A stretch of DNA of 64,000 bases from Saprospiraceae bacterium (lineage in GTDB: Bacteria; Bacteroidota; Bacteroidia; Chitinophagales; Saprospiraceae), in NCBI GenBank assembly GCA_016722295.1, contig JADKGL010000029.1, forward strand, positions 147,040 through 211,039. Direction: 5' to 3'. The notes beneath the pieces were generated by a model. It made no database searches and had not been told where the DNA came from. It saw nothing but the letters and a program-made list of their open reading frames with translations. Positions 31,146 through 54,580 of this stretch are shown here, piece by piece (the stretch's first letter is position 1; each line of letters opens with the position of its first letter). The position numbers and the translations under genes are program-made.

Positions 31146-31467
31146 ACATTCAGAATTATAATCAAATATTCTATAATGATTATTTTCTTTTCCTAGTATA
31201 TTTAAGTAAAAGCAAATGTTTCTTTTAGCATATTTTGGATTGTTAAATTTAACTTGATAATAAATACTTTTTATAACTGTCTTATGATTTTCACATGGAA
31301 AGTCGTAATGTTTGTTTGTAAAATTAAAAGCAATGGAAAGGCAATCAAAAAATATTTAACTTTTGCTTCAATTTTTTTGTCAGGATATGTTATCGCAGAA
31401 AAGAAATCATAATTTTGTTTATGCATTTTGTCAATTACTTATTTGTTATTAATTAGCAAACTCAGTT

Positions 31468-37947: not shown

Positions 37948-38908
37948 CTAAATGGAATAAGGTTACTGTTGTGTTTTTGTTAAAGTGAATATATTTTTTT
38001 AGCAAAACAATAGCTTCTTTAATTTTAGCTGCATCAATATTTTCATATTTGATTTTGTCACCAATTCTCAAATAAGTATCATCAATTACCTTATCTTGTG
38101 TAACGCTGTACCACAATGGTTTTTCCTCTTTTATTATTGGCATAAGTTGTTTATTGTCAGTATATAAAATTGCAGAAAAAATCTCGTTATGATACACTTG
38201 AGCCCATGAATATATTGGTAGAGCTATATCAACATGTTTTGGATATGGCTGCACATTTATCAGATAGCTTTTCAATTCTTCTAAATCGAGAATTGAGTTT
38301 TTGCTAAGATTTTCTAATGGATTCAATAAATTGTAACACATTAGCATTACTTTATCCACTGGAGGAACGCCCATATTGTCTGTATATTTATAAGGATATA
38401 ACCTTAATGTAGCGCTGATTTCTTTGTCAGATATAGACTTTAGTTTTTGTAGAAAATAAAAATAATTTTCTTTCGATTTTAATGTCCAATCGCAATCCAT
38501 TTGAATTTCATTTATTGAAAAGTTTTTAAACTCTGCTTTTTGATATTTATTAATTAAAAAATTAATGTTGTCCGCTAATGCGTCCAAATCTTTTTTTGAC
38601 GATTTTAGGAAATTTACATTTCGCAATTAAACAGTAGGAATAATTGAAGTAATCTTCAAATCGTCTAGTCGCCATGAGCTTAACCTTGTTTTAGAAATTG
38701 GAAAGCTTCCAATTTCATCATTGTAATCTACTTCAAAAAATTTCACATAGAGCTTTTGAATCTTTAGACTATCACAAACTTGCATTTCTTTGTCTGACAA
38801 ATTCCAATCCTTGCTTCTCCAAAAATAAAATGCGCGTTCTACATTGTCAATTTTATTTTTACATGAAGAAAAAGAAACTAAAATGATTAATATCAAGAAT
38901 TTTTTCAT
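37880..38908 (-). pseudogene. hypothetical lipoprotein gene interrupted by one in-frame TAA (track ORFs 38627..38908 and 37880..38626)
   Basis: The two ORFs are contiguous and in the same frame: ..ATT CCT ACT GTT TAA TTG CGA AAT.. (IPTV*LRN). The first has a lipoprotein signal (LILIILVSFSSC). The second only starts at the TTG right after the stop. Confidence 0.6.
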
Positions 38909-39021: not shown

Positions 39022-39306
39022 TTACAAAGAAATAGGATTCACCTTTACCTGTCCACCAATTGCTTTTAATACTTTCATTATTGTTGAAAATTGTGGTTTA
39101 GCTCCATCAGATAAGGCTTTATATAAACTAGGTCTACTCAATCCAGATTTTTCAGCAATTTGTGACATTCCCATAGCTTTAGCAACATTTCCTATTGCAA
39201 TGATTAAATCGTTTTCATTTCCTTGTTCTAATACTTCGTTTAAATATTCAGCAATCATTTCATTGCTATCTAAGTAATCTGTTATGTCAAACTTTGTAAT
39301 TTCCAT
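39022..39306 (-). CDS. addiction-module antidote protein (HTH antitoxin partner of the COG3657-type toxin)
   Basis: 94 aa. N-terminal DITDYLDSNEMIAEYLNEVLE and the HTH MSQIAEKSGLSRPSLYKALS, typical of this antitoxin family. 3-nt gap to the toxin gene. Confidence 0.85.
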   Translation of the reverse strand: MEITKFDITDYLDSNEMIAEYLNEVLEQGNENDLIIAIGNVAKAMGMSQIAEKSGLSRPSLYKALSDGAKPQFSTIMKVLKAIGGQVKVNPISL

Positions 39307-39309
39307 TTT

Positions 39310-39609
39310 TTATATTTTTAACGAATTCCAAATTTCTTTAGCTCTTGCTATGTTTCTTTTTTGCGTTGATTTATCTCCACCTATTAGTAAAACTATAATC
39401 TTACCGTCCATTTGTTTAAAATAAACACGATAACCTTTTGCATAGTCTATTTTTAGTTCTCTAATTCCACCGCCAACAGATTCGCAGTCACCAAAATGTT
39501 CTACTTGTTCTAATTTTTGAATCCGCATTAAAATCTTAGCTTTAGCTCGAAAATCTTTCAATTTTCTGAGCCATTTGTCAAATTCTGATGTCTTTTCAAT
39601 CAAATACAT
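39310..39609 (-). CDS. RelE/ParE-superfamily toxin (putative addiction-module killer protein)
   Basis: The track ORF starts at TTG 39636. ATG at 39609 gives the 99-aa MYLIEKTSEFDKWLRKLKD...GGGIRELKIDYAKGYRVYF..GGDKSTQ, the classic killer-protein pattern. Confidence 0.85.
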   Translation of the reverse strand: MYLIEKTSEFDKWLRKLKDFRAKAKILMRIQKLEQVEHFGDCESVGGGIRELKIDYAKGYRVYFKQMDGKIIVLLIGGDKSTQKRNIARAKEIWNSLKI

Positions 39610-39666
39610 TTTATGACTGTATTCATTCGGATACAAATTTATCGAAATTTTATTAATTTTGAATTA

Positions 39667-40104: not shown

Positions 40105-40392
40105 TTAATTCACAGTTTCTATTTGTTCTAATTCTCTCTTGATTGTTTTCATTTCTTCTTCAATGTCAAAGTCGTTTTGTAAGCCAAGCCAGAATTTAGA
40201 AGATGTTCCAAAGTATTTGGAAAGTCTTAAGGCTGTATCTGCTGTGATTCTTCTTCTTCCCTTTAGTATTTGACTAGTTCTTGTTTGAGGAACTCCAATA
40301 GATTGAGAAAGTTTATAGGCAGTTATACCCATTGGTTTTAGAAATTCTTCTTCTAATATTTCTCCAGGATGTATGTTTTTTAGTTTATTCAT
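40105..40392 (-). CDS. higA: HigA-family XRE-type antitoxin, no adjacent toxin gene
   Basis: 95 aa. IHPGEILEEEFLKPMGITAYKLSQSIGVPQTRTSQILKGRRRITADTALRLSKYFGTS is the canonical HigA HTH. Only 48 nt separate it from the upstream OsmC gene. Confidence 0.85.
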   Translation of the reverse strand: MNKLKNIHPGEILEEEFLKPMGITAYKLSQSIGVPQTRTSQILKGRRRITADTALRLSKYFGTSSKFWLGLQNDFDIEEEMKTIKRELEQIETVN

Positions 40393-40440: not shown

Positions 40441-40830
40441 CTAATTAATTCTCATAGGCACAGCTTCAGAGATCAACTTTGCCACAGGACACTTTTCAGC
40501 AATGGCAAATAATCTTTCTATTTGTTCGTCGGAAAGTTGATTTTCAAAACGAATTGTTTTTATGATTTTTTTATCTTGTGAATCATTAGTATCGAGTTCA
40601 GTGATTACTTCTATTTTTCCTGTATTCCAGGCTTTTCTTTTTGCATAAAGCTGTATAGTAATCGTAGTACAAGCTGCAAGAGATCCAAGAAAATATTCAA
40701 TTGGATTGGGCGCTAAGTCTGTACCTCCTATTTCAATCGGTTCATCAACAAAGAAGTTTTTATCTGCCGTCTTTACTTCTGTATAGAGTTTGTCTGAGTC
40801 AGAAGTGGCTGTTACAACTGTATTTTTCAT
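40441..40830 (-). CDS. OsmC-family protein
   Basis: 129 aa. GGTDLAPNPIEYFLGSLAACTT and a C-terminal EKCPV motif (the two OsmC Cys). Confidence 0.8.
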   Translation of the reverse strand: MKNTVVTATSDSDKLYTEVKTADKNFFVDEPIEIGGTDLAPNPIEYFLGSLAACTTITIQLYAKRKAWNTGKIEVITELDTNDSQDKKIIKTIRFENQLSDEQIERLFAIAEKCPVAKLISEAVPMRIN

Positions 40831-41252
40831 CCTTTAAAATCTATCTTAACGTGAGAGCCATCACAAAATGGTTTGTTGTTGGATTGTCCACATCTGCAAA
40901 AGGCTGCAACTTTATTTTTTTGCGTTTCACTTCCATCTGCGTTTTTGATCTTCAAGTTTCCATAGACCATAAGTGGACCATTGGCTATAACTTCCACTAT
41001 TTGTTCGCTATGTACTTCACTTTGTGTTACTTCTCCTTCATTTTTATAATAACTCAAGGCACCCGAAGGGCAATTATTGATACGCTTAATAATCTCTTCT
41101 GTAGGGGCTCCTTCTGCATTTATCCAAGGCCTCACTCCAGGATTAAAAACCGATAAAAGGCCATGTTCTCCTTTCCAACATTTGGTAGAATGAATACAAG
41201 CCTCTGGTTTCCAGACGATCGTAATGTCTTTGTTTGAATATTTTTTTTTCAT
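40827..41252 (-). CDS. fusion of a divergent 4Fe-4S mono-cluster domain and a CDGSH iron-sulfur domain
   Basis: 141 aa. N-terminal ..CIHSTKCW..NNCPSGAL and C-terminal CRCGQSNNKPFCDGSH (CDGSH). 4-nt overlap with the OsmC gene. Confidence 0.75.
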   Translation of the reverse strand: MKKKYSNKDITIVWKPEACIHSTKCWKGEHGLLSVFNPGVRPWINAEGAPTEEIIKRINNCPSGALSYYKNEGEVTQSEVHSEQIVEVIANGPLMVYGNLKIKNADGSETQKNKVAAFCRCGQSNNKPFCDGSHVKIDFKG

Positions 41253-41372: not shown

Positions 41373-41708
41373 CTAGAATTGCACCAGCATTTCTGTAAGT
41401 TTAACCTCTGAATCCGTTGCAATTTTATGTGCTGAATTATACAGACTTTCAAGTATGTCAACATTATTTGATCTCACAGCTTCTTCTATTTTGATAAGTG
41501 CTTCTTTTAGACTACTGACTCCCATAAAATCGGCTTGTGGTTTTAACGAATGTGCGTTAATACGAAGCTGCTCCCAATCTTTATTTTTGAGATTGCGATG
41601 CATTTCCTCAAAAGTCTTTGGCGCTACATCAAGGTATAATGTAATGTAACGTTTCATTTTTTTGGGATCATCTTTTGTGAACTGTTTTAAAAAAGATAGA
41701 TCGACCAT
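41373..41708 (-). CDS. Hpt-domain phosphotransfer protein
   Basis: 111 aa. Four-helix Hpt pattern with the phospho-His motif NAHSLKPQADFMG. Confidence 0.75.
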   Translation of the reverse strand: MVDLSFLKQFTKDDPKKMKRYITLYLDVAPKTFEEMHRNLKNKDWEQLRINAHSLKPQADFMGVSSLKEALIKIEEAVRSNNVDILESLYNSAHKIATDSEVKLTEMLVQF

Positions 41709-42095
41709 TTACACATTCGCATTAATAAGTTGAAAAATTTCTTCGAAAGCATCTTGTCCTTTTATCACATAATGTACTGCACCAAACATAATGGTTTTTG
41801 CGGCAGTTCCATAGCTTTCTTGGCTGGATAACATGATGACTGGTAAGTCATGGTTTTGCTTTTTTAATTCTCTAAGAATATCGATGCCATTTGCTGCATC
41901 TTTTTCTTTTGAATTCAAATGAAAGTCTAGAACGACAGCGTCTGGTTGTTTATCCAAACTTTGCAAACAGGCTTCCCCTGTTGGAAACGAAACTATATTA
42001 AAATTTTCATATTGACCTTTTAAATAGTCGGTCAGCATTTCAGACAATAGAGGCTCATCGTCCACGATGAAAATAGTTGGATTTTGATTAATCAT
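41709..42095 (-). CDS. single-domain response regulator (receiver only)
   Basis: 128 aa. IFIVDDEP acidic pocket, VVLDFHL phospho-Asp, MLSS, K in YVIKG. Abuts Hpt with no gap. Confidence 0.85.
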   Translation of the reverse strand: MINQNPTIFIVDDEPLLSEMLTDYLKGQYENFNIVSFPTGEACLQSLDKQPDAVVLDFHLNSKEKDAANGIDILRELKKQNHDLPVIMLSSQESYGTAAKTIMFGAVHYVIKGQDAFEEIFQLINANV

Positions 42096-43603
42096 GATAT
42101 TTTATTTAATAAGTTAAAAATTTTGTATAGCAACTCATCTGTATCAAAAGGCTTCCCTATAAAGTCATTCATGCCTGCTTCATAGCACAAATCGATTTCT
42201 TCTTGGTGAACATAGGCAGTCATAGCAATAATGGGCGTTTTTGATTTTTCACTTTTCATGTTTCTTATATTTTTTGTGGCTTCAAAACCACTCATCACTG
42301 GCATTTGGATATCCATTAATATAATATCATAAGTTGATGATTTTATTTTCTCTTTGGCAATCAATCCATTTTCGGCCACATCTATGTGAACATCTTCAAT
42401 TGCTTCTTCCAGTTCTTCCGTCGACACTACGATATTGAAAGCATTATCTTCTACCAAAAGAATGTTAATTCCCTTAATTTCGGCAGCTGCATTCTTTTCG
42501 ACATAATTTGACATCACATCTTCAGCTTTTTTCTCTTCTGAGAGATACGGAAGGATAAAATGAAACTGACTGCCTTTGTCTTCTTTACTTTCCACCTTGA
42601 GTTCACCTCCATGTGCCTTCACAATTTCATAACTTAAACTCAATCCTAATCCAACCCCTTGGCCCGCTGGTTTAGTGGTAAAGAATGGTTGGAAGATTTT
42701 ATCTTTGATTCTATCGGGGATACCTGATCCATTATCTTGAACAGAGATTAACATTTGGTTATTTGCAATATGTTTTGTAGTGATTGAAACGATGGGTTCA
42801 AATCCAATTTCTTCTTTTTTGCTTCTCTCAGAAGCAGCCCAAATACCGTTATTGATAAGATTTAAAATTACCCGACCCAAGTCTTGTGGAACGACATCAA
42901 TTTTTGGTAAATTAGGATCAAGAAATCTTTCTATTGTACAATTGAAAGATCTCTCCTTGGCTTTTATACCATAGTATGCCAAACGCAAAAATTCATCACA
43001 CAAAACATTTATGTCAGTAGGCGTTTTTTGTCCCGTTGGTCTCTTTGAATGTTCAAGCATACCTTTAACAATGTCGGAAGCTCGTTTGCCATGAAAATAT
43101 ATTTTTTCAAGGTTTTCTGCTATGACATTTAAAATTTCATTTTCTAAACCTCTATTTCGCTCACTTTCAACTTTTGAACTTTCAATTTTCAACTCTGAAA
43201 TTAATTCTTTACTAACTTCACTAAAATTATTGACGAAATTTAAAGGGTTCTGAATTTCATGTGCAATGCCTGCAGTAAGTTCTCCTAATGATGCCATCTT
43301 TTCGGTTTGGATGAGTTGGAGTTGTGTAGATTTGAGACTTGAAAGGGCTTTTTCGGCTTTTCCTTTTTGGGCTGCAATAGTTTCGTTTGTTTGCTGCAAT
43401 AATTCTTGCATTTTTCGGATATATCGAAGTCTTTTATATAAATTATAAGAAAGCAGCAAAACTATAATACTCAGAAATATTATCCAATTTTTGTTGGAAT
43501 ACAGTTCGGTTGCTTCTCTGGTTTGTGCAAAGGCGTAAGATGTTATAAACGTTCCTGCAAGAGTCAGAAAGCATTTAAAATTTACATATTTGATTGAATT
43601 CAT
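42092..43603 (-). CDS. hybrid sensor histidine kinase/response regulator with minimal extracytoplasmic loop
   Basis: 503 aa. Two TM helices flanking about 12 residues, H-box [12 protein letters not shown], HATPase N/G boxes ([23 protein letters not shown]), C-terminal REC ([14 protein letters not shown]..). Confidence 0.9.
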
Positions 43604-43637
43604 TTTTTACTTTCAGTTAATGATGTCTATAATAGAA

Positions 43638-43672
43638 ATCTATCTCTCAGGAAATTTTCCATTGAGATAGAT
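43638..43672. promoter_or_regulatory. 35-nt near-palindrome between susD-like stop and kinase start
   Basis: atctatctc (43638-43646) pairs with gagatagat (43664-43672); inner ggaaa/tttcc arms. Confidence 0.35.
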
Positions 43673-43731
43673 ATCTAAAAGTTTGATGTAGTTATGCAGA
43701 GCTAAATATTTTATTTTTTAAAATAAGTTTC

Positions 43732-45057
43732 CTAATATCCATCATTCTGCTCCATCAGCTTGTTTGTATTCATCTCTGATTGTGGGATAGGCATTACAAG
43801 TTTGGGACTGTCAAATGGTAGGCTTGCCACGCTTGATTTTGTTCGTTTGATATCATAGATAGCAAACCCTTCAAATGCCAATTCTCTTTGTCTTTCTTTG
43901 ATAATGTCACCAAGGGTTAATGTAGTCAAAACTGCTGCAGATGATCTTATTCTGATGGAGTTGATATCATCGATTGGACTTGCACCAAGAGCTGTATTTA
44001 ATCTCTGATTGCATTCAGCACGAATTAATATCATTTCAGCCAGTCTGATTAAAGGAATATCGCCAAACTGACTCACATATTTGTTAGTTAGGAAATCTCC
44101 TTTTGCATTTTGATAATAAAATTTGGATCGTACATCATTTGGATCATCAAATATATTTAGGTAATCTTGATTAATAGAAATATCTCCACCTCGACCACCA
44201 TTCTCCTCTGATGCATAAAAAGTTATTAACACATTTTGTCCACTTTGAGATGTGATCTGTACAGCAAAAATATCTTCAGATCCATTGACGTCATGGTTAA
44301 ATGCAGCAGCATAATTAGGCGCTAAAGCTCTGCCACTATTGGCAATTACATCATGCGCTGCTCCTCCTGCAGCTTTGTAGTTGCCCAGATATAATTGTAC
44401 TCTTGCAAGAAGTGCCAGTGCAGCATATTTGTCGGCATAAAATCCATTTTCTTTCGGAAGTATCCCTGCAGCTTTTTGAAGGTCATTAATTATCAAAGTA
44501 ATAACTTCATCAGTTGTACTTCTTTTGATAGATAAGTCACCACTAAAATCTTTTACGGACGTTGTTCTTAAAGGCACAGCTTTTACATCATTTCCAAACA
44601 ACCTAAGCAATTCAAAATAAGTCAAAGCTCTAAGAAATTTGGCTTCTCCTTCGACTCTTGTTTTTTCATTTTCGTCTTTTATTACTGATAGATGATCCAA
44701 GACTAGATTAGTTTGATTGACAGACTCGTATAGACTATTCCACATCAATCCAATAATGCCGTTATTTGGCAACATAGATTTGTTAAGTGCTTCTCTAGGC
44801 TCATAAAAAGTGCCATTCCAAGAAACTTGATTGTCAGAGCCTATTAAGTCAGAAAAAATCTGTAGGTATCCACCGTGATTGCCTTCTAGTGCTTGACTAT
44901 GGTAAGCACCAATCAATATTTTTTTGATATTTTCTTCTGAAGTAAGAGCAACATTATCTGATATAGAAAGGGTAGGCTCTACATTCAATTCTTTGGAACA
45001 AGAAATAATAGTTACAAAAGCAAAAAGTAATACTATATATTTTATTAAATGATTCAT
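43732..45057 (-). CDS. RagB/SusD-family nutrient-binding outer-membrane lipoprotein
   Basis: 441 aa. Lipoprotein signal FAFVTIISC; TPR-like helical SusD composition; 21 nt downstream of the SusC-like gene. Confidence 0.9.
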   Translation of the reverse strand: MNHLIKYIVLLFAFVTIISCSKELNVEPTLSISDNVALTSEENIKKILIGAYHSQALEGNHGGYLQIFSDLIGSDNQVSWNGTFYEPREALNKSMLPNNGIIGLMWNSLYESVNQTNLVLDHLSVIKDENEKTRVEGEAKFLRALTYFELLRLFGNDVKAVPLRTTSVKDFSGDLSIKRSTTDEVITLIINDLQKAAGILPKENGFYADKYAALALLARVQLYLGNYKAAGGAAHDVIANSGRALAPNYAAAFNHDVNGSEDIFAVQITSQSGQNVLITFYASEENGGRGGDISINQDYLNIFDDPNDVRSKFYYQNAKGDFLTNKYVSQFGDIPLIRLAEMILIRAECNQRLNTALGASPIDDINSIRIRSSAAVLTTLTLGDIIKERQRELAFEGFAIYDIKRTKSSVASLPFDSPKLVMPIPQSEMNTNKLMEQNDGY

Positions 45058-45078
45058 TTCTTATTGATTTTAGATGTA

Positions 45079-48078
45079 TTAAAAATTGATATTTAGTCCT
45101 ATTGAAGTGGTTTTGGCTTGTGGAGCGGATTCATAATCTATACCATAATTAGAACCTAAACTATTAGCATCAGCTCTCGACTCTGGATCGAAACCATCAT
45201 ATTCGGTAAATGTCAGCAAATTGACTCCAGAAAGATAAATACGGGCATTGCGAATTTTAACTTTACCTAAGATTGATGATGGAATGTCATAGCTCAACAT
45301 CACATTTCTCAATCGAATAAAATCTGCTTTTTGGAGATATCTTGTGGATATTGCATTACCATTTCCTCCATATAGTCTGGCTTGTGGTACCTCAGTAATA
45401 TCTCCTACTTTTTGCCAACGGTTTAGTTGATTTACCGTTTGGTTGCCAAAAAAATCTCCATTTGACGAAGTAAATTTACCGAATGCATTGTAAATACTTG
45501 CACCCCATTCTCCTACAAAAGTAAAGCTAAGTGCAAGACCTTTGTACGAAACTTCATTGGTAAGGCCTCCTATCCAAGTGGGTTGTGTATTACCAGCTAA
45601 AACAGGTTTTACTTCCGAATAATTTGCTGTGGTTTCACTGCCTTTTCCATCGGTATAATACAAAGCATCGCCATTATTAGGATCGACTCCTGCATATTCA
45701 GGTAAATAAAACGTAGGTGCAGCATGCCCAACTCTGTAGAGAGCTGTAAAAAATATGATATCAGCGTTATTGTTGGGTAGCGATATGATCTTATTTGTAT
45801 TATTGGATATATTTAGATTTGTAGTCCATTCGAAATTTTTACTTGTAATATTTTTAGAGTTCAACACAAGCTCTATTCCTTTATTTTCTACTTCACCTAT
45901 GTTTTTATTGATCCCTAGTTGACCTGAACTACCGGGCAAAGGCACATTAAACAGAAGTCCATCAGTTCTTTTTGAATAAAAATCCAATTCACTAGAAATC
46001 CTATCTTTAAATAATCCGAACTCTATACCTAAATCCAATTGCTTGCTTTTCTCCCAAGTCAAATCATTGTTGCCAGGTTGTGTCAATCTTATACCAGAAC
46101 CTCTATTGTAAGACACACCATTGTAGAGCGATTTAGACGCAAAATTTCCTATTTCAGAATTGCCCAACTGACCATAACTTGCTCTTACTTTCAGTAAAGA
46201 AATTGTATTAAAATCTTTGAGAAATGACTCCTCAGATACTAACCACCCAACAGACATTGCAGGAAAAACACCATACCTTTGGTTTGCACCAAATCGAGAT
46301 GAACCATCTCGTCTGATACTCGCCTTTACAAAATATTTGTCTTGAAGCATGAAGGAAGCCCTAGCGAAATAGGATAAAAAATTGTACCTCTCATTAGATC
46401 CTTTGCCTTGTGTAATCTCAGCTGCACTAGATATGGATTTGAAATCATCAGAAGGAAACTGTACCCCACTCACACTATTGAAAATACGATCAGAATTACT
46501 GAACTCCTGGCCTGCGACTACAGTAAGCAAAGAAGTCTTATTGATTTCTTTATTGTAGGTAAAATAATTAGACCATATATAATTTTCTGATTTGGCATTT
46601 GAATTATATGCAAATCCGTTTGTAGCCATAAATGGTGTCAACCTTCCTCGATATTGATTTTCTGTTTGGTTGCTCAGATCGTAACCTAAGTCAGAATTGA
46701 ATTTTAAATTTTGAATAATATTATATTCTGCAAAAACTTTACCTGTAATTCTATGTAGGTTTGTTGTAAAATCAGCATATCTATCTTCGAGTAAAAAGTT
46801 TGGATATAGCGTATTTGGATTGGGTGTGCCATCTTCATTTAAAGCTGGGGAAAGTGGAGATTGCTCTATCGAAGAAGATGGCGTGACGAATTCATTATCG
46901 TTAGCCACACGGTCTATAATGGTTTTGGAAATTCCCAGATTCATTCCAGCAGAGATTTTAAATGACAACTGGTGCTTGAGATTCATCCTGGCACTGAGTC
47001 GTTGTAAGTCATTACCGAGTATGATTCCTTTGGTTTTGTTTAGAGTGCCTCCAAAAAAATATTGAGTTTTTGCATCACCGCCAGATATAGACAGATCCAT
47101 ATCAGACTGACTACCATCTTTAAATGCTACCTTACCCCAATCGGTATCAACAGCACCATTTCGCCAATCAGTACCATTGGACACAAAATCAAAAAATCCT
47201 TCTGCCTCAGCTTTTCCTGCGTCTTCGCCCAAAGAATTGATGGCAGCTTCTGTAAAGAGTTCTTTGTATTGTGCTGCATTGAGCACTTTGATTACATTAG
47301 TAGGCGAACTAATCCCTGATGAAATATTCAGAGAAACATTCGTCTTACCTACTTTTCCTTTTTTGGTCGTAATCAGCACGACACCATTTGCACCTCTTGC
47401 ACCATATATTGCAGCAGAGCTTGCATCCTTTAGAATATCGATAGATTCTATTTCTGAAGAACTAAGCGATAATAGTGGATTCATTACAGCTCCATTGCTA
47501 GATTCGTTTTGGTTGATAAGAGGCATACCATCCAATACATAAAGTGGTTCAGTAGCTTGACTAAGACTAGATGTGCCACGTATCCTGACATTGATACCAC
47601 CCTCTACTTTACCATTTGTTTGATTGATGCGCACACCAGCTGCCTTTCCTGACATTGTGTTTTGAAAATTGGACACAGCAATGTTAGAAATGTTTTCAGA
47701 TGTTAGTTTTGCTACATTGTCTGTCAAATTTCTTTTGCTAGTACTACCGTATCCGATGACCATAACTTCATCTATTAATTTTGTAGATTCTTCAAGTATG
47801 ATTTTAATATCATCTACTCCGTCGGAAAGATTGATGGTTTTGGTCTCGTATCCTAAAAAATTGAAAGTTAAGGATTGGACTTTATTGGGTAATTGTAGAT
47901 TAAATTTCCCATCGATATCTGTAATAGCCCCAATCTTAGGAGCGCCATCGGCTATAATATTAACGCCTATGATGGCTTGCCCATTTGGATCTGTTACAAT
48001 TCCTTTGATCGATTTTTGAGCTAGCGAGTAACTTATACTTCCTAGCATTAATAAAAGAAATAAAAAAAGCTGTTTCAT
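45079..48078 (-). CDS. SusC/RagA-family TonB-dependent outer-membrane transporter
   Basis: 999 aa. Signal peptide, carboxypeptidase-regulatory-like domain (IKGIVTDPNGQAIIGVNI), plug region (DEVMVIGYGSTSKRNLT), long barrel ending in ..GLNINF. Confidence 0.92.
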   Translation of the reverse strand: MKQLFLFLLLMLGSISYSLAQKSIKGIVTDPNGQAIIGVNIIADGAPKIGAITDIDGKFNLQLPNKVQSLTFNFLGYETKTINLSDGVDDIKIILEESTKLIDEVMVIGYGSTSKRNLTDNVAKLTSENISNIAVSNFQNTMSGKAAGVRINQTNGKVEGGINVRIRGTSSLSQATEPLYVLDGMPLINQNESSNGAVMNPLLSLSSSEIESIDILKDASSAAIYGARGANGVVLITTKKGKVGKTNVSLNISSGISSPTNVIKVLNAAQYKELFTEAAINSLGEDAGKAEAEGFFDFVSNGTDWRNGAVDTDWGKVAFKDGSQSDMDLSISGGDAKTQYFFGGTLNKTKGIILGNDLQRLSARMNLKHQLSFKISAGMNLGISKTIIDRVANDNEFVTPSSSIEQSPLSPALNEDGTPNPNTLYPNFLLEDRYADFTTNLHRITGKVFAEYNIIQNLKFNSDLGYDLSNQTENQYRGRLTPFMATNGFAYNSNAKSENYIWSNYFTYNKEINKTSLLTVVAGQEFSNSDRIFNSVSGVQFPSDDFKSISSAAEITQGKGSNERYNFLSYFARASFMLQDKYFVKASIRRDGSSRFGANQRYGVFPAMSVGWLVSEESFLKDFNTISLLKVRASYGQLGNSEIGNFASKSLYNGVSYNRGSGIRLTQPGNNDLTWEKSKQLDLGIEFGLFKDRISSELDFYSKRTDGLLFNVPLPGSSGQLGINKNIGEVENKGIELVLNSKNITSKNFEWTTNLNISNNTNKIISLPNNNADIIFFTALYRVGHAAPTFYLPEYAGVDPNNGDALYYTDGKGSETTANYSEVKPVLAGNTQPTWIGGLTNEVSYKGLALSFTFVGEWGASIYNAFGKFTSSNGDFFGNQTVNQLNRWQKVGDITEVPQARLYGGNGNAISTRYLQKADFIRLRNVMLSYDIPSSILGKVKIRNARIYLSGVNLLTFTEYDGFDPESRADANSLGSNYGIDYESAPQAKTTSIGLNINF

Positions 48079-48137
48079 AAAATATTGATTTGTTGGTTTT
48101 TAAAAAATACATTATTTGTTTTGTTACTCATTGGTCA

Positions 48138-50753
48138 TTATGATTTAACAAGATTATTAATTTTAGAAAGCAATTCCTCCATATCAAAAGGCTTCCCGAT
48201 AAAGTCATTCATTCCAGACTTATAACACAGATCGACTTCTTCTTTGAGTACATTGGCCGTCATCGCAATGATTGGAGTATGTGCTTTTTCACTATGCATA
48301 TTTCTAATGATATGTGTAGCTTCAAATCCATTCATTATTGGCATTTGTATATCCATGAGTATGACATCAAATGTTGAAGATTTCATTTTTTCTACTGCTA
48401 TCAATCCATTCTCTGCAACTTCTACTATCACACCTTCTATGGCATCTTCCAATTCTTCAGTTGCTACTACAATGTTAAAAGCATTGTCTTCTACAAGCAA
48501 GATTCTAATGCCTTTTAGTATTTCTGCTGTGTTAGTATTTACATCTTCCGTTGGTTTTAGTTCTACTTTAATTGCTCCAATTTCATAAGGAATTGTAAAA
48601 TGAAACTGACTGCCTTTACCTTTCACACTTTCTACCCAAATTTTTCCTCCATGCAGTTCTACCAATTTTTTAGAAATACTTAAGCCTAAACCTGTGCCAC
48701 CAAATTTCCTTGTAGTATCGCTGTATGCTTGTTCAAATGATTCAAATATTTTTGCAATACTGCTTTGTTCTATTCCAATACCTGTATCTGAGATGATGAA
48801 ATGAAGATTAAGTTTTTCACCAATTTGCTCCGATTTTATGGTAGTCGTCACCATTCCTTTTTCGGTAAACTTAATTGCATTGCCGATCAAGTTTATGAGT
48901 ATCTGTCTTAACCTAGTGGAATCGCCTAATACAAATAATTCTTCCGTAGGAATTTCTTTCGCAAGTCTTAAACTTTTTTCTTCGGCTTTGAATTGCATGA
49001 TGGTGTGGACATTGTGCACCAATTCATGGATAGAAAATGATACGTGTTCCAACTCCACTTTTCCTGCTTCTATTTTTGAAATATCCAAAATGTCATTGAT
49101 GATGACTAATAAGGAATCGGATGATTGTTTGATGCCTGTCAAATATTCTTTCTGATCATCGTTGGGACTACGTCTGATCAGAATATCCGTCATACCCTTG
49201 ATGGCATTCATGGGAGTACGGATCTCATGGCTCATATTAGCAAGAAACTGATGTTTGGCTTTTTCACTGGCTTCAGCTTTTTGTTTTTCAGCTTCTATGA
49301 TTTCGTTTTTGTGTTGTAATAGTTTCTGAGTTCTTCTGGTATATCGAAGTCTGAAATATAATCCTAATGAAATTAAGCCTGCTACAATACCTAAAAATAG
49401 AATCCAGTTTCGGGTAGACTTTTGTTTATTGAGTTGGCTTTGAAAATCGAGTTTGGATTTTAGTTGTTCTTGAGTGAATTGGTTTTCCAACTCAAGTCTT
49501 GTTGTTTCACTACTGTTTCTCCATACTGCCAATGTGTCTTCAGTCTGTATATGTAACTTATAATTTTTCAGTGCATTATTATAATCTCCAATACCCTCAT
49601 AAGCTTTAGAAAGTATGTCAAAGTTGTCCGAGATTTGCTTATTATACGTATGTTCGGAAACTTTAAAAGAGTGGATTGTTTGTATTGCGTTATTATAATT
49701 TTTAAGACCCAAATAAGCTCTTGCTTTTTCAGAGATAAAAAAGAGATCTCGTACTGCCCACTGATCGTTCTTCTTAACAAAACCTTCAACTTCATTAAGT
49801 TCTTCTAATGCCCCTGAATAGTTACCAGTTAAATTTTTTATTGCAGCGTTATATGTTTTTGCAGTATAATAACAAGGCTCACAGTGTTTAACATTTATCA
49901 TTACATTCATAGAAGAGTCTACATATTTTTGGGCACGTATTTCATCTTTCAATCTCAGCAATAAAACGGATTTGGTAAGATATGAGCCACCTAGATGAAA
50001 AGTATCTTTTAACAAATGACTGGTCTGAAGGCTCTTATCAATGTATTTTTCGGCTTCATTATAATTTCCAATTTGGAGATGAATACTTGCAAGTATTTGG
50101 TTGATAATGCTATATCGAATGTCAATTAAGTTCAATTTTTCTGATAACCGTTGGGATTCTAAGAGAAAGGACAAAGCTTTGGGATACTTTTCATTATCAT
50201 GATACCAAACTCCTATTTCAAGTTTTCCTATTCTTAGCAATTCATTGTCTTTCTTTTCATCCTTTAGTTTAGCTTTATATTTATTGAATTCAATTATAAT
50301 ATCTTCATCTTTAATGTCTTCATTGCATTGGAATTTTAATATACTGTATGCCCAGAAAATGAAATTCAGTTTGGCAGAATTTGATATTTTTGCACTCTCA
50401 ATCGCTTTTTTAGCATTAGTACACATACAATCTGTTTTGCCTTCACAAGTTTCGGCAGACATCGTATAAAATAAAAGTAGATATTCATTTTTTTTATTTT
50501 TTAAGGCGAGTTCAATAGCTTCATTAATTTCAAATTTCCATTTCTCCCACCAAACAGGTATTCCCTCTATATTCTCAAAATTTAGTCTTTCAAAAATAGC
50601 ATCTAACCTATCAATTTCAGATTTAGATTTATCTTTCCAGATGGCATACAGCTCATCGTCTGTTTTGTTTTGACTATAAACGAGTGAAGTGAAAAATATT
50701 CCGAAAGCTATCAGAATGAATTTTAATTTTATATCTGTCAATTGAATCATCAT
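48138..50753 (-). CDS. hybrid sensor histidine kinase/response regulator with about 420-aa TPR-like periplasmic domain
   Basis: 871 aa. Signal/TM, TPR-like repeats (..IGNYNEAEKYIDKSL.., ..LKNYNNAIQTI.., ..IGDYNNALKNYKL..), TM at about aa 449-467, H-box MSHEIRTPMNAI, HATPase (NLIGNAIKFT, DTGIGI, GTGLGLS), C-terminal REC. Confidence 0.9.
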   Translation of the reverse strand: MMIQLTDIKLKFILIAFGIFFTSLVYSQNKTDDELYAIWKDKSKSEIDRLDAIFERLNFENIEGIPVWWEKWKFEINEAIELALKNKKNEYLLLFYTMSAETCEGKTDCMCTNAKKAIESAKISNSAKLNFIFWAYSILKFQCNEDIKDEDIIIEFNKYKAKLKDEKKDNELLRIGKLEIGVWYHDNEKYPKALSFLLESQRLSEKLNLIDIRYSIINQILASIHLQIGNYNEAEKYIDKSLQTSHLLKDTFHLGGSYLTKSVLLLRLKDEIRAQKYVDSSMNVMINVKHCEPCYYTAKTYNAAIKNLTGNYSGALEELNEVEGFVKKNDQWAVRDLFFISEKARAYLGLKNYNNAIQTIHSFKVSEHTYNKQISDNFDILSKAYEGIGDYNNALKNYKLHIQTEDTLAVWRNSSETTRLELENQFTQEQLKSKLDFQSQLNKQKSTRNWILFLGIVAGLISLGLYFRLRYTRRTQKLLQHKNEIIEAEKQKAEASEKAKHQFLANMSHEIRTPMNAIKGMTDILIRRSPNDDQKEYLTGIKQSSDSLLVIINDILDISKIEAGKVELEHVSFSIHELVHNVHTIMQFKAEEKSLRLAKEIPTEELFVLGDSTRLRQILINLIGNAIKFTEKGMVTTTIKSEQIGEKLNLHFIISDTGIGIEQSSIAKIFESFEQAYSDTTRKFGGTGLGLSISKKLVELHGGKIWVESVKGKGSQFHFTIPYEIGAIKVELKPTEDVNTNTAEILKGIRILLVEDNAFNIVVATEELEDAIEGVIVEVAENGLIAVEKMKSSTFDVILMDIQMPIMNGFEATHIIRNMHSEKAHTPIIAMTANVLKEEVDLCYKSGMNDFIGKPFDMEELLSKINNLVKS

Positions 50754-50805
50754 TTTTAATATTGTTCAAAAATAGCGGATAGTAATTGTAAGGTAGATGT
50801 TTAAA

Positions 50806-50837
50806 TTATCAAACGGTCAAATTATTTATCTAACGGT
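50806..50837 (+). promoter_or_regulatory. pair of 12-nt direct repeats TTATCAAACGGT / TTATCTAACGGT, 20 nt start-to-start
   Basis: 50806-50817 and 50826-50837; 53-84 nt upstream of the 871-aa kinase start. Same motif and spacing as at 51395-51426. Confidence 0.45.
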
Positions 50838-50920
50838 TGGTATAAAACCTTCAAGGTTTTCCGTTTTAGCCTAAGAAACTGCTTTTTATCACGGTATGGG
50901 GCAGCATTGACTCAACTTGG

Positions 50921-51316
50921 TTAATGATTTTCACTAAAAGTGAAAAAATCTAAACCTTTAATCTTCACAGCTCTATCACAAGCTATACAAGTACCGTAGT
51001 TATTGAATTCATTGACCAAAATGCGAACGCTTTCTTGTAGTGTAAGAGTGGCATTTGAATGAATATAAAGTTGATTGATCTCGATCATTCCTGTCTTGAT
51101 TATAGGATATTTCTGAGAACCTGTAGATACATTGGGGATAATTACATTATCAAATATATCAGGGATTCTACCTCGGCTCCAATTCTTGCTACAATCCCAT
51201 TTGGATTCTTGTCCTGGTGTTCCGCCTTTCCAGGTATTGATGATTTGTGCAGAAACAGTTTGTGGTAAGAATTGACTCAAAAAAAGGACAACTGAAAATA
51301 CAATTAAATTACGCAT
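50921..51316 (-). CDS. small secreted hypothetical protein
   Basis: 131 aa. Signal peptide MRNLIVFSVVLFLSQFLPQTVSA. No family recognised. Confidence 0.5.
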   Translation of the reverse strand: MRNLIVFSVVLFLSQFLPQTVSAQIINTWKGGTPGQESKWDCSKNWSRGRIPDIFDNVIIPNVSTGSQKYPIIKTGMIEINQLYIHSNATLTLQESVRILVNEFNNYGTCIACDRAVKIKGLDFFTFSENH

Positions 51317-51394
51317 GATTTTAATTTTAATATTGACTAAATATTTTTAACAGAACAAAACTAAGCGCTAATACTAGAGAATACTGCATTTCGT

Positions 51395-51426
51395 TTATCC
51401 AATGGTAGTTGCAATTATCAAACGGT
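51395..51426 (+). promoter_or_regulatory. pair of 12-nt direct repeats TTATCCAATGGT / TTATCAAACGGT, 20 nt start-to-start
   Basis: 51395-51406 and 51415-51426, in the divergent promoter region between the 131-aa gene and the LytTR regulator (113-144 nt upstream of its ATG). Confidence 0.45.
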
Positions 51427-51538
51427 TAAAACTCTTTGATTTTATCATCTAATTGTCTCCTCGAACCATAATCTACTTGAAATATTATGCCTCGATTATA
51501 ATTTGCAATAATGATTTTTTTATACCTTTACTGTACCA

Positions 51539-52288
51539 ATGAAAACCAAGAAACCATTAAAAGCCCTAATAGTGGAAGACAATGTCTTTATGGCAACAGT
51601 TTTACAAGATTTGCTTACCCAATATTCGAGTAAAATAGCTATAATAGACATTGCTAAAACTGGCAATGAAGCACTTAGTCTAATTGCGAAAATAAATCCT
51701 GATGTTATTTTTCTCGACATAGAATTACCTGACATGACTGGATTTGAGCTGCTTCAACAATTAGATAACATCAATTTTCAAACTGTATTTACTACATCAC
51801 ACAGCCACTATGCCATCAAAGCTTTTCGATTCAATGCATTAGATTATCTTATAAAACCAATTAATGAAAGTGAGTTGGATGAAGCCATCAAGAAAATATA
51901 CAAATTTACAAATAATAGTATTGATGTAAAAAATGCTTTATCGAATCTTGACATACAAGCTGTGGAAAACCAAAATTTGGTTTTGCCACAACAAGATGGC
52001 ACTTTAAGATTACCATTAAGGCAGATTACCTATATAGAAGGCGAACGCAATTATAGTTATATTCATCTCTCAAACGGCAGCAAAGAGTTATCTTCAAAAA
52101 ATTTAGCATACTTTGAAGACATACTTGTAGATAAAAATTTCTATAGAACCCATCGTTCATTTCTTGTCAACAAATACCATATTAAAGAATTAATAGAAAG
52201 TCATTTTGTGCTAAACAATAAATTAGAAATACCCATATCAAGAAGAAATGGCACTGAGGCTAAAGCTTGGTTTTTGGGTTTGGAGTAA
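51539..52288 (+). CDS. LytR/AlgR-family response regulator (REC + LytTR DNA-binding domain)
   Basis: 249 aa. ALIVEDN..IFLDIELPDM..LDYLIKP receiver, then the LytTR pattern ..ITYIEGERNYSYIHL....FYRTHRSFLVN. Confidence 0.9.
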   Translation: MKTKKPLKALIVEDNVFMATVLQDLLTQYSSKIAIIDIAKTGNEALSLIAKINPDVIFLDIELPDMTGFELLQQLDNINFQTVFTTSHSHYAIKAFRFNALDYLIKPINESELDEAIKKIYKFTNNSIDVKNALSNLDIQAVENQNLVLPQQDGTLRLPLRQITYIEGERNYSYIHLSNGSKELSSKNLAYFEDILVDKNFYRTHRSFLVNKYHIKELIESHFVLNNKLEIPISRRNGTEAKAWFLGLE

Positions 52289-52449: not shown

Positions 52450-53019
52450 TCATTTATCCATGGAGATTATTTTTGTGTTTATTAAATTATTGAAATTGGT
52501 AATAAAATTATCCAACTGTTTTCTAGTATCAGGATCTGTCAGATTACCTTGATCGTCAATTTTTCCTTTCACACCTTCAATTAACAAAGTCGTTTCGTTT
52601 GTAAAATTCGCCATTGCAGTTTTCATAATTAGTTGCAATTCTTCGTGTCCCTTTTGTCCAATTGCAGAAGCTGTAATAAGTCCACAAGGTTTGTCAGAAA
52701 ATATCGTTGTCGCTATACACCATTCAATTGCATTTTTTAGTCCACTTGGAATACTAAAGACATATTCAGGTGTACATATAATAATTCCGTCTGCTTGGTC
52801 AATGCTGTTTCTAAATTCAATTATATCTATAGGTGGATTGTTCGTTGAAAGTTCTGGGTCAAAATGTGGTAACTTTTTTAGACTGTTGTAAATTGTCAAG
52901 TCGAAAATATCACTTGTTAGATCGGCGATTTTCTCAGCCAATTTTAAATTTGCAGAATGTGAACTCGCACTCCCAATTATTGCTATTATTTTCTTTTTTG
53001 CATTCATTACATTTTTCAT
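52450..53019 (-). CDS. NADPH-dependent FMN reductase-family flavoprotein
   Basis: 189 aa. KIIAIIGSASSHSAN and IICTPEYVFSIPSGLKNAIEW motifs. Confidence 0.8.
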   Translation of the reverse strand: MKNVMNAKKKIIAIIGSASSHSANLKLAEKIADLTSDIFDLTIYNSLKKLPHFDPELSTNNPPIDIIEFRNSIDQADGIIICTPEYVFSIPSGLKNAIEWCIATTIFSDKPCGLITASAIGQKGHEELQLIMKTAMANFTNETTLLIEGVKGKIDDQGNLTDPDTRKQLDNFITNFNNLINTKIISMDK

Positions 53020-53134
53020 TTTTGCTTTGCTTCAATAACTGCAAGATTGTTAATAAGCTTCCATGCATTGTCGATGTCTAATACTAACGAATTATATGAT
53101 ACGAAAAAATTCTCGGAACTTTCTAAACGAAGTT

Positions 53135-54580
53135 TTACCATATGTTATCATTTGACTGTGTTATTAGTTCGAGTTGTTTATTTGAAATCATGTCTTGTGA
53201 ACTAGTTGCCACCTTGTCTTGTGTTTTGACTTTAGAGAGGATTGATTCTAAAAGAGGCAGCATACCATTTAAGTTTTTTGTTTTAATCATAAAATTCCAA
53301 ACTGGCTCAAATTTTTTCCAACCACCACTATAAAAGAAATGTTTTAGTTTGTGTTTATGTGAGTCTTGATTTAGACTTGCTTTAAGAATATTTGGCCAGC
53401 TATAAAACTCCTTGTAGGCCCAATTATAACCATTTTTTAATTCGTCTGATGTGAGATTAATTGTTTTATAAACTACATTTCTTGTGTCGTATAAGTCCCA
53501 ATTTCTAGTTAAAATGCGTCCCTGTTGTTCCATGTCCTTAAATAATTTTGTTCCAGGGTATGGCGTCAATACATGATATGTCGAAGTTGTAAGTGAATTA
53601 TTTACTCCCCAATCAACTGTACGTTTAAATACATCCTTATCATCTTCATCAAGTCCAAATACAAAACTACCGTTTATCATAATTCCGAGTGAATGTAAAC
53701 GATTCACTGCTTTTACATAATCTTTTTCTAAGTTTTGTTTTTTGTTACTTTGTTTCAGATTGGCAGGTGAGAATGTCTCAAAGCCTACAAATAAACTTCG
53801 TAGTCCCGCCTCGGCTGCTTTTTCAATTAAGTTCCCCCGAAGTATTGAGTCAACTGTCGCTGCGCCTTGAAAGACCCTATTCATACCTCTCATCCCTTCA
53901 AAAAGCTCACTAGCAAATTTTGCATTTCCGAGTAAGTGGTCATCAAGAAAGTACAGATGTCTGCCCGGTAGTCTATCGATTTCAGCTAATGCATCATCAA
54001 CTGTTTGAGTATAGAATGTGCGTCCACCTTCAAAAAAGGCATCTTTATAGCAAAAGTCGCAATGGTGAGGACATCCTCTAGTTACTACAATAGAGTTAGG
54101 AACTAAATATCTATTTCTTTTGATTAAATCTCTTCTTATGGGTGGTATTTTTTCCAATGTCCGAATACTAGAACTATATACTTTCTTCGCTGATTTATTT
54201 TTAAAATCTTTGAGGAACTGTGGAAATGTCTCTTCTCCAGGTCCAAGAAAGATTGTGTCTGCGTGAAGTGCTGCTTCTTCAGGAAGTGAGGTTACATGAA
54301 GTCCACCAAGTAAAACATAGGCACCTTTCTTTTTATAATGGTCCGCAATTTGATATGCCCGATATGCATTTGTAATATAAACTTGAATAATAACTAAATC
54401 TGGACTGTCAGTAAGATTTAAATCTTCTACATGTTGGTCTTGCAGATCTATTTCATCGTCGGGGGATAAATAAGCTGCTAAAGTCGCTAGACCTAAAGGT
54501 GGGAATAAGGAATATTTAATCGGTCTCCAAAATGGACTTTCAGCTTCGGCAAGTGCGGGTAATATCATTTTTACTTTCAC
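53135..54580 (-). CDS. B12-binding-domain radical SAM protein
   Basis: 481 aa (GTG start; ATG 4 codons in). N-terminal cobalamin-binding-like domain, radical SAM CxxxCxxC as GCPHHCDFC, long C-terminal extension. Confidence 0.88.
   Translation of the reverse strand: MKVKMILPALAEAESPFWRPIKYSLFPPLGLATLAAYLSPDDEIDLQDQHVEDLNLTDSPDLVIIQVYITNAYRAYQIADHYKKKGAYVLLGGLHVTSLPEEAALHADTIFLGPGEETFPQFLKDFKNKSAKKVYSSSIRTLEKIPPIRRDLIKRNRYLVPNSIVVTRGCPHHCDFCYKDAFFEGGRTFYTQTVDDALAEIDRLPGRHLYFLDDHLLGNAKFASELFEGMRGMNRVFQGAATVDSILRGNLIEKAAEAGLRSLFVGFETFSPANLKQSNKKQNLEKDYVKAVNRLHSLGIMINGSFVFGLDEDDKDVFKRTVDWGVNNSLTTSTYHVLTPYPGTKLFKDMEQQGRILTRNWDLYDTRNVVYKTINLTSDELKNGYNWAYKEFYSWPNILKASLNQDSHKHKLKHFFYSGGWKKFEPVWNFMIKTKNLNGMLPLLESILSKVKTQDKVATSSQDMISNKQLELITQSNDNIW

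Follow-up and report, generated by a model that had tools for sequence, protein, structure and literature searches.

Phosphorelays in which several kinases converge on one Hpt protein are well known, as in Vibrio, where LuxN, LuxQ and CqsS signal through LuxU to LuxO, and in the GacS/RetS/HptB networks of Pseudomonas. LytTR regulators of the AgrA/ComE/AlgR type are associated with paired direct repeats of ~9 bp with a 12-bp spacer (~21-bp phasing), BceS/BceAB-type intramembrane-sensing kinases use a transporter as their sensor, and RagAB is an enzyme-less pair of the SusCD type that imports peptides. The locus described here shares features with all of these. It lies in a 64,000-nt stretch of a Saprospiraceae bacterium (GCA_016722295.1, contig JADKGL010000029.1, positions 147,040 to 211,039), hereafter called the window, and places a susC-susD transporter pair between two hybrid kinase genes (HK1 and HK2), followed by genes for a stand-alone receiver (REC) and a stand-alone Hpt protein and accompanied by a divergent LytTR-family regulator gene. 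We consider it probable that the locus is an autoregulated relay cassette in which a species-specific insertion of susC-susD at the HK1/HK2 junction was captured as a co-transcribed output. Its genes and the left edge of the inserted segment are listed below in window coordinates.

51539-52288, plus strand: LytTR-family response regulator (REC + LytTR; Pfam REC 2.2e-21, LytTR 4.7e-17)
50921-51316, minus strand: sec131, small secreted protein of 131 aa (signal peptide; no family)
48138-50753, minus strand: HK1, hybrid kinase (open reading frame (ORF) map)
48079-48137, minus strand: HK1-susC spacer, 59 nt, left edge of the inserted segment
45079-48078, minus strand: SusC, SusC/RagA-family TonB-dependent transporter without STN domain (TIGR04056 and Pfam)
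43732-45057, minus strand: SusD, SusD/RagB-family surface lipoprotein, partner of SusC (Pfam)
42092-43603, minus strand: HK2, sensor-less mosaic hybrid kinase (ORF map and segment comparison)
41709-42095, minus strand: stand-alone REC, 128 aa (Pfam; orthologues)
41373-41708, minus strand: stand-alone Hpt, 111 aa (Pfam Hpt 4.9e-09)

Comparison with described systems

Polysaccharide utilization loci (PULs) regulated by hybrid two-component systems (HTCS), such as those of Bacteroides thetaiotaomicron, resemble the locus in their adjacent susC and susD genes, lipoprotein SusD and TonB-dependent SusC, in the periplasmic-sensor hybrid kinase beside the transporter and in the likely induction of the transporter by a neighbouring regulator. 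The locus differs from them in that it has no carbohydrate-active enzymes (CAZymes), a TPR rather than a Reg_prop/Y_Y_Y sensor and no fused AraC output; signal exit runs via a separate Hpt to a LytTR regulator, and the linkage occurs in one species and is not a conserved design. With LuxU/HptB-type relays it shares the several hybrid kinases (here one to three) upstream of a common Hpt and terminal regulator, but the regulator is of LytTR and not of sigma-54/NtrC type, an invariant extra stand-alone REC is present and the kinases are stacked in one operon. The AgrA/ComE/AlgR systems have in common with it the REC + LytTR architecture, two direct repeats (here with 20-nt phasing) just upstream of the core promoter and autoregulation of the kinase operon, which is predicted here. 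In contrast to those systems, input comes through hybrid kinases and Hpt instead of an HPK10/LytS-type kinase, the promoters are of Bacteroidota type, and peptide-precursor, processing and export genes are lacking. The locus is thus not a peptide quorum-sensing module of the Agr, Com or Pln kind, having neither an HPK10 kinase nor these genes; its sole small secreted product is the 131-aa protein, which only 2 of about 8 lineages possess.

As in BceS/BceAB-type systems, HK2 has two hydrophobic segments, a periplasmic stub of ~13 residues and transporter genes next to it. Here, however, the transporter resides in the outer membrane and is no inner-membrane ABC system; HK2, a hybrid kinase, arose through deletion of a TPR sensor, and there is no conserved pairing. 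A precedent for an enzyme-less SusCD pair is ButCD of Bacteroides fragilis (PMC11467351). The pair in the window resembles ButCD and RagAB in having no glycan-degrading genes nearby and in belonging to a family conserved across species.

The order and coordinates of the six co-oriented genes, as given in a sequence-only reading of the window, agree to the base with the ORF map. HK1 and susC are 59 nt apart, susC and susD 21 nt, and susD and HK2 128 nt; the HK2 and REC genes share 4 nt, and Hpt follows REC without a gap. Both kinases carry HisKA, HATPase_c and REC domains in Pfam, which also confirmed each domain call in the other signalling proteins (REC, Hpt and REC + LytTR, the LytTR domain scoring 62.5 bits); none of the signalling proteins reached an equivalog threshold in NCBIfam. 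The same reading had noted the lack of enzymes and of classical PUL regulators, and both observations hold for the entire 64 kb: we found no glycoside hydrolase, lyase or nutrient peptidase, and no HTCS, extracytoplasmic function (ECF) sigma/anti-sigma or SusR-type regulator. The adjacent CAZymes (glycoside hydrolases, polysaccharide lyases or carbohydrate esterases) or peptidases of a canonical PUL are therefore missing within the window, and so is its regulator, the kinases having no Y_Y_Y/Reg_prop or AraC domain and SusC no STN domain. Neither an STN domain nor a sigma/anti-sigma gene is available for TonB-dependent trans-envelope signalling of the FecA/STN-SusC type.

A relay cassette conserved without SusC/D

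An orthologous cassette is present in seven other lineages (Ferruginibacter, Ca. Brachybacter, other Saprospiraceae and Sphingobacteriales), which together with five lineages carrying SusC/D orthologues make up our comparative sample. At least four of the orthologous loci used were recovered by a metagenome scan with an alignment of the HK1 sensor domain. The conserved unit is a LytTR gene divergent from one to three stacked TPR hybrid kinases, after which come a REC of 128 aa and an Hpt of 111 aa. SusC/D was found neither inside the cassette nor within 10 kb of it in any of the seven (0/7), and the divergent LytTR gene is present in six of them. The loci are organized as follows.

L006/L007, Ferruginibacter: cassette with one kinase
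L008, Ca. Brachybacter: cassette with one kinase
L089-L092, metagenome contigs: cassette with one kinase
L093, metagenome contig: two tandem HK1 copies, then REC-Hpt
L094, Saprospiraceae: two HK1 copies and one Y_Y_Y hybrid kinase (three kinases)
L004/L005, Sphingobacteriales: two Y_Y_Y hybrid kinases and insertion sequence (IS) elements between HK1 and REC

We defined the cassette from L006, L008 and L089-L094 by a divergent LytTR gene, an HK1-type kinase, a REC gene with a 4-nt overlap, an Hpt gene and a pair of LytTR boxes (described below), and all of these features are present in the window. Identity to the window proteins is 71-79% for LytTR, 61-72% for HK1, 79-85% for REC and 67-78% for Hpt; in the eight loci of the definition the LytTR orthologues, at the identity just given, sit divergent from HK1. 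REC is the component with the highest conservation, and its 4-nt overlap with the last kinase gene recurs in all orthologous cassettes. Two further short contigs (6117 and 7285 bp) carry two HK1 paralogues each and leave no room for a 4.4-kb insertion. A genome scan with the full HK1 alignment returned 80 hybrid kinases, which were set aside as paralogues: they aligned only at residues ~450-870 with 36-49% identity, were picked up by the generic H-box pattern (SHEIRTPM) across the Bacteria and were of no use for synteny. Published descriptions of the cassette or of a SusC/D-LytTR linkage were not found in the literature, and nothing relevant was found on hybrid-kinase/Hpt/LytTR systems in Bacteroidetes or on TPR/LytTR systems in Saprospiraceae.

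The proposal that these genes form a multistep phosphorelay with LytTR as DNA-binding output is supported by the predicted catalytic residues: the H-box, ATPase and receiver Asp of the hybrid kinase, the Hpt His and the Asp of the terminal regulator are all present. Within the orthologue alignments Hpt H53 is invariant and lies in the invariant block DWEQLRINAHSLKPQADFMG, and REC residues D12, D13, D57, S90 and K112 are invariant as well. The LytTR regulator is predicted to be the terminal phosphate acceptor and DNA-binding output of the relay.

The remaining gene, sec131, has a homologue (42% identical, in the same position) only in L090/L091, that is, in one other cassette lineage, and matches neither Pfam nor NCBIfam. 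Its N-terminal part shows the motif 'W-KGG-PG...W-C..NWS.GR.P'. We regard it as accessory to the cassette and predict it to be a target of LytTR.

Some further observations concern the plasticity of the cassettes. Growth by stacking of kinases upstream of a single REC-Hpt pair is seen in L093 (7380-12622), L094 (10001-19204) and L004 (10001-22520). Just upstream of HK1, remnants of receiver-domain coding sequence remain in L094 (9717-9983), L090 (~9900-10000) and L091 (~1910-2008); these are scars of past rearrangements.

The SusC/SusD pair and its relatives elsewhere

Membership of the transporter in the SusC/RagA family is clear, with 788.5 bits against TIGR04056 (cut-off 368), 66.7 bits against the signature model TIGR04057 (cut-off 46.2) and a Pfam architecture of CarboxypepD_reg, Plug and barrel; no STN domain or other signalling extension was found in it with Pfam. 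SusD, encoded 21 nt downstream, belongs to the SusD/RagB family (SusD-like_3 8.5e-26, SusD_RagB 2.9e-20) and has the lipobox ...IISC|S. Its relatives are many, ~441 aa long and 50-69% identical. A sequence search of the PDB with SusD returned generic SusD homologues only and gave no hint of a substrate.

Orthologues of the pair, 50-76% identical, occur in five other lineages (L001, L002, L003, L099-101 and L102/103), and in none of these is the relay cassette next to them (0/5), nor do LytTR-box pairs occur at their loci. The SusC orthologues of L001 and L002 (75-76% identical) lie in unrelated contexts. In L001, L002 and L102/103 the pair is located 1.5-6 kb downstream of a 7TMR-DISM or Y_Y_Y kinase and a GerE-type regulator, a neighbourhood in which this family of enzyme-less transporters may natively be regulated; SBBP/BNR beta-propeller proteins secreted by the type IX secretion system (T9SS) are often near or just upstream of SusC/D in these loci. 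In L099-101 and in Aquimarina (L003) the pair has no adjacent regulator. A strong intrinsic terminator ends susD in L099, L102 and L003, and the ~35 nt preceding the susC ATG are alike among the orthologues and the window. Given the shared leader and the terminators, the pair behaves as a unit of two genes that can move along with its leader and terminator.

Two candidate links between the pair and the cassette were rejected. A 102-aa LytTR-domain protein downstream of the L001 SusD orthologue is only 30% identical to the window's regulator, and with no box pair in L001 it is unrelated. A SusD homologue (P0029) and an HK1 homologue (P0292) are on contigs of equal size (11771) that come from different sources; 120 x 120 comparisons would be expected to yield about one such coincidence, and the match is probably due to chance.

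Confinement of the arrangement to one species

The sequence-only reading had seen the locus as a candidate non-canonical nutrient- or signal-sensing system, a proposal that by its own account would fall if the arrangement were peculiar to this genome. Within our sampling it is so confined, the SusC-SusD pair standing between kinases only in the window's species (four assemblies). Apart from the window, the arrangement recurs in L096, L097 and L098 only, with 97-99% identity at the protein level. L096, a 404-kb JGI contig, covers the whole locus; L097, a Logan contig, runs from the 3' end of HK1 through Hpt, and L098 covers susD-HK2-REC. All eight genes are intact and, with dN/dS of 0.05-0.26 in the strain comparison, are under purifying selection as judged from these ratios.

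One more contig, L095 (ENA ERZ15185635, 3620 bp, ~1x coverage), was considered as an independent second lineage in which susC follows HK1. Over 2.5 kb its identity to the window is 60-83%; at window position 49087, within the kinase core of HK1, identity jumps to ~100% and stays there as far as the start of susC. Given this sharp mosaic and the ~1x coverage, we rejected it as a chimera or recombinant.

LytTR boxes, promoters and read-through

Phased direct repeats had been noticed in the two promoter regions of the locus, and they stand out against the rest of the window: all four exact copies of TATCNAAYGGT in 64 kb are found there, in two pairs spaced by 20 nt. The conserved, predicted LytTR box is TTATCNAAYGGT, in two copies 20 nt apart and followed by a Bacteroidota -7 element. 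The regulatory features are as follows.

51393-51427, plus strand: LytTR-box pair 2 (boxes 51396-51406 and 51416-51426), 80-110 nt before the sec131 ATG and 113-143 nt before that of the LytTR gene
51356-51363, minus strand: perfect -7 element TAGTTTTG, ~31 nt downstream of pair 2, 39 nt before the sec131 ATG
50804-50838, plus strand: LytTR-box pair 1 (boxes 50807-50817 and 50827-50837), 54-84 nt upstream of the HK1 ATG
50767-50774, minus strand: perfect -7 element TATTTTTG, ~34 nt downstream of pair 1, 13 nt before the HK1 ATG
43638-43672, minus strand: hairpin after susD (9-bp arms, then a T-rich tract)

With a position weight matrix (PWM), pair 2 scored 37.4 against a shuffle maximum of 17.6, and no further box pair was found in the 64 kb beyond the two promoters. 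The boxes are conserved together with the cassette. In L006, L008 and L089-L093 a box pair with 20-nt spacing separates LytTR from the first downstream gene; upstream of HK1 the pair TTATCAAACGGT / TTATCAAAAGGT, again with 20-nt spacing, is present in L006, L008, L089, L092 and L093, and in L090/L091 the pair precedes the sec131 homologue in the position of window pair 2. L092 repeats the geometry of box and -7 element, the latter being TACTTTTG. Single "boxes" just upstream of HK1 in L090, L091 and L094 were discarded as false positives, leftover REC-coding GKPFDT codons mimicking the box. A LytTR domain thus goes together with paired repeats at about two-helical-turn phasing, as in a LytTR regulon, the repeats being predicted sites.

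The Bacteroidota -7 consensus is TAnnTTTG, from which we infer that the -7 elements of the window are promoter elements. A sigma-70 scan returned 48 matches against 48.1 expected, sigma-70 being the wrong promoter type for Bacteroidota. The -7 element of HK1 and its box pair form a predicted LytTR-dependent operon promoter. In the 59-nt susC leader, in turn, there is neither a hairpin nor a LytTR box, and in place of a canonical -7 element it has only the imperfect TATTTTTT. Since susC has no recognisable promoter or boxes and follows HK1 after 59 nt, its transcription probably starts at the LytTR-box promoter. The palindrome that had been noted in the 128-nt gap before HK2 is real: its 9-bp arms (ATCTATCTC...GAGATAGAT) are conserved in strain L096, fold as RNA with -21.8 kcal/mol (z = -2.5) and are followed by a T-rich tract. 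The hairpin resembles a terminator- or attenuator-like end of the susCD unit, and the gap has no canonical -7 element, only TAGATTTC, inside the hairpin. The simplest reading would be that a LytTR-activated promoter drives HK1-susC-susD, with attenuated read-through into HK2-REC-Hpt, and the transporter is now most likely, to judge from these elements, a co-transcribed output of an autoregulated relay.

From the observed anatomy, conservation, insertion, cis-elements and intact catalytic residues we infer an order of phosphotransfer, DNA binding and co-transcription. A self-contained susC-susD unit, with its leader and terminator-like hairpin, has entered between the first kinase and the mosaic HK2. 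HK1 would detect a periplasmic ligand via its Cys-containing TPR solenoid, and phosphate would pass from the HK1 His to its own REC Asp, on to Hpt H53 and finally to the Asp of the LytTR regulator, with the stand-alone REC acting as a competing sink or branch. The phosphorylated regulator would bind the paired boxes and switch on the sec131 and HK1-operon promoters. The susC and susD genes would then be transcribed as passengers of the HK1 promoter, as suggested by the lack of boxes and of a canonical -7 element at susC, and would represent the output of the relay and not its sensor. HK2 may supply a sensor-independent kinase or phosphatase input.

Several points weigh against capture of the pair by the relay. 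The near-consensus element in the 59-nt spacer could serve as a weak susC promoter. Orthologous susC leaders (L001, L002, L099 and L102) also lack a perfect -7 element, which makes its absence in the window weak evidence. The hairpin that follows susD could isolate HK2-REC-Hpt from transcription starting at the HK1 promoter, and these relay-essential genes would then need another promoter. With seven cassette and five SusC/D lineages sampled, rarer lineages with the same insertion may exist, and L095 may after all represent a second lineage with susC after HK1. Finally, three of the five contexts of SusC/D orthologues adjoin other two-component systems, and the transporter family may have a recurrent tie to signalling genes.

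A rival reading is an accidental juxtaposition, in which an autonomous susC-susD unit with a weak spacer promoter and a terminator would have arrived in a recombination-prone array of kinases and be expressed on its own, HK2-REC-Hpt being transcribed from a promoter in the 128-nt gap, with no functional or regulatory link between the two. We think this unlikely, if conceivable. It is consistent with the autonomy of the orthologous pairs, which have terminators and carried their leader sequence along, with the rearrangement-prone nature of the cassettes (IS elements in L004/5, REC remnants in L090, L091 and L094, tandem kinase duplications) and with the imperfect -7-like elements in both gaps. 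However, perfect -7 elements are present in both LytTR-box promoters but canonical ones in neither gap, no terminator was found between HK1 and susC, and the insertion has been kept intact in diverged strains (susC/D dN/dS 0.12-0.16 at a strain dS of 0.07-0.1).

HK1, HK2 and the question of sensing

HK1 consists of a periplasmic TPR-like sensor, one transmembrane (TM) helix, a TorS/BarA-like HisKA-HATPase core and a REC domain. Its family is ~873 aa long, with full-length orthologues 60-78% identical in Saprospiraceae, Chitinophagaceae/Ferruginibacter and Sphingobacteriales; the best NCBIfam models for the core are TorS, BarA and LuxQ, with scores far below the cut-offs. TPR matches fall just below the Pfam thresholds. 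An AlphaFold model of residues 1-440 has a mean pLDDT of 70.5, with residues ~30-330 mostly at 80-94, and confidently predicts that these residues form an all-alpha TPR-like solenoid. Foldseek matched the model to generic TPR solenoids only (LGN/Pins and Rap/NprR; TM-score 0.4-0.5, 11-13% identity), so the modelled solenoid is compatible with a peptide or protein ligand whose identity the matches do not indicate. Four Cys residues (C111, C143, C291 and C294) are invariant in the sensor among 27 orthologues, the C-x-x-C lying in an equally invariant 'HCEPCY' motif, and hint at redox-, metal- or disulfide-dependent sensing. The sensor is strongly conserved with or without neighbouring SusC/D, which argues against a sensor tuned to this transporter, and HK1 is the conserved primary input of the cassette.

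HK2 had been described as a paralogue of HK1. This is true of its N-terminus, TM-linker and REC domain, which are HK1-like (REC 75% identical), but not of its catalytic core, which is NtrB-like and belongs to another subfamily; overall identity between the kinases is 42%. Residues 1-37 and the TM2-linker of HK2 are of HK1 type, and the stub 'QTREATELY|SNKNW' is the HK1 N-terminus fused to HK1 residue 446, which, read from the sequence, is a clean loss of the entire sensor. The product has an HK1-type signal/TM1, ~13 periplasmic residues and TM2. Residues 100-370 are 68-75% identical to non-hybrid NtrB-like TPR/Y_Y_Y kinases, and residues 370-503 are 75-77% identical to HK1-family receivers and nest in the HK1 receiver clade on a long branch. 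NCBIfam likewise classes the HK2 core as NtrB/AtoS-like and that of HK1 as TorS/BarA-like. A full-length match to HK2 was seen for the same-species protein alone, other matches being restricted to the catalytic core. The HK2 build was absent from the top matches among 1.84 billion cluster representatives, essentially all of which end with the catalytic domain; the best of them is a double 7TMR-DISM kinase without a receiver. P0140, a Saprospiraceae protein of 787 aa, couples a sensor and linker of HK1 type with this NtrB-like core, has no REC and is a natural intermediate. The catalytic motifs of HK2 itself (H-box AHEIQNPL, G-boxes, REC Asp) are intact, and its dN/dS against strain L096 is 0.26. 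The P0140 sub-family also shows the same HK1-type sensor coupled in nature to two different kinase chemistries.

These features bear on the original idea that SusC/D is the ligand-capture arm of the system, importing into the periplasm a molecule that is sensed by the HK1 TPR domain, or having its transport activity read by HK2, in a non-catabolic import-and-sense device with LytTR output. The shared orientation and short gaps, the lack of enzymes nearby and the purifying selection on all genes in two strains speak for it; so may the HK2 topology, which is that of intramembrane-sensing kinases if the analogy with BceS-type kinases is followed, and the modelled HK1 sensor, a solenoid of peptide- or protein-binding type. 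Yet the sensor family of HK1 shows high conservation in seven lineages without SusC/D in cis and the SusC/D family occurs without the relay in five, SusC, with no STN domain or signalling extension, offers no known path by which a barrel in the outer membrane could signal to an inner-membrane kinase, and the HK2 stub spans only ~13 residues in an architecture confined to this species. We found no support for the idea, since cassette and transporter occur without each other in these lineages and the HK1 sensor is conserved irrespective of SusC/D, and we consider it quite improbable. Very doubtful, too, is a loop created by the insertion, in which SusC/D, driven by the LytTR-box promoter, would import a molecule that is detected by the Cys-containing TPR domain of HK1, or the transport load would be sensed by HK2, uptake and relay reinforcing each other. 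Joining of SusC/D to the kinase genes by mis-assembly has next to no chance of being correct: L095 shows that mosaic or chimeric contigs of this very region exist, but the same gene order and both junctions in independent assemblies of different sources (L096, L097 and L098) rule it out.

Genes flanking the locus

Around the locus the window encodes housekeeping and redox functions, cargo proteins of the T9SS and a toxin-antitoxin pair. On one side (40441-41252) lie the genes for OsmC and a CDGSH/Fer4_19 iron-sulfur protein, on the other (52450-54580) those for an FMN reductase and a B12-binding radical SAM enzyme, and these redox-type flanks are kept in strain L096. Beyond the OsmC gene strain L096 differs from the window, so the locus adjoins a strain-variable segment. 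Downstream of the locus are a Gp49-like toxin with an HI1420-type antitoxin and an HTH_3 protein (39022-39636 and 40105-40392). Further away, ORFs of 775, 248 and 426 aa (35620-38626 and 29865-31145) have no Pfam match and adjoin a SprB-repeat T9SS protein (33289-35496) and a low-GC stretch (30001-32000, 25% GC). AraC-type genes occur twice in the window, at 54891-55934 (Ada-like) and 59300-60169, both unlinked to the locus. The former encodes a complete Ada-type methylphosphotriester/O6-methylguanine methyltransferase with an AraC helix-turn-helix and is the sole AraC-type regulator near the locus, a regulator of DNA repair and not of a PUL.

Implications

The locus is not a new class of nutrient- or signal-sensing system. 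The conserved entity of interest is the LytTR/hybrid-kinase/REC/Hpt cassette and not the SusC/D linkage. Its hosts, bacteria of Saprospiraceae and Chitinophagaceae type, are abundant members of activated-sludge, freshwater and soil communities, and the predicted LytTR box could serve to map its regulon genome-wide. The locus also illustrates how hybrid-kinase arrays grow through stacking and domain swapping, and how SusC/D pairs can gain new regulators by insertion into an autoregulated operon. If the transporter has become part of an import-sense-induce loop, the locus would be a natural case of de novo wiring of a transporter into a LytTR-output phosphorelay and would provide the first effector of an otherwise uncharacterised, widespread signalling cassette of Bacteroidota. 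If regulatory capture is correct, this species would provide a ready read-out of a conserved and unstudied cassette, with SusC/D and the small secreted protein as its visible outputs.

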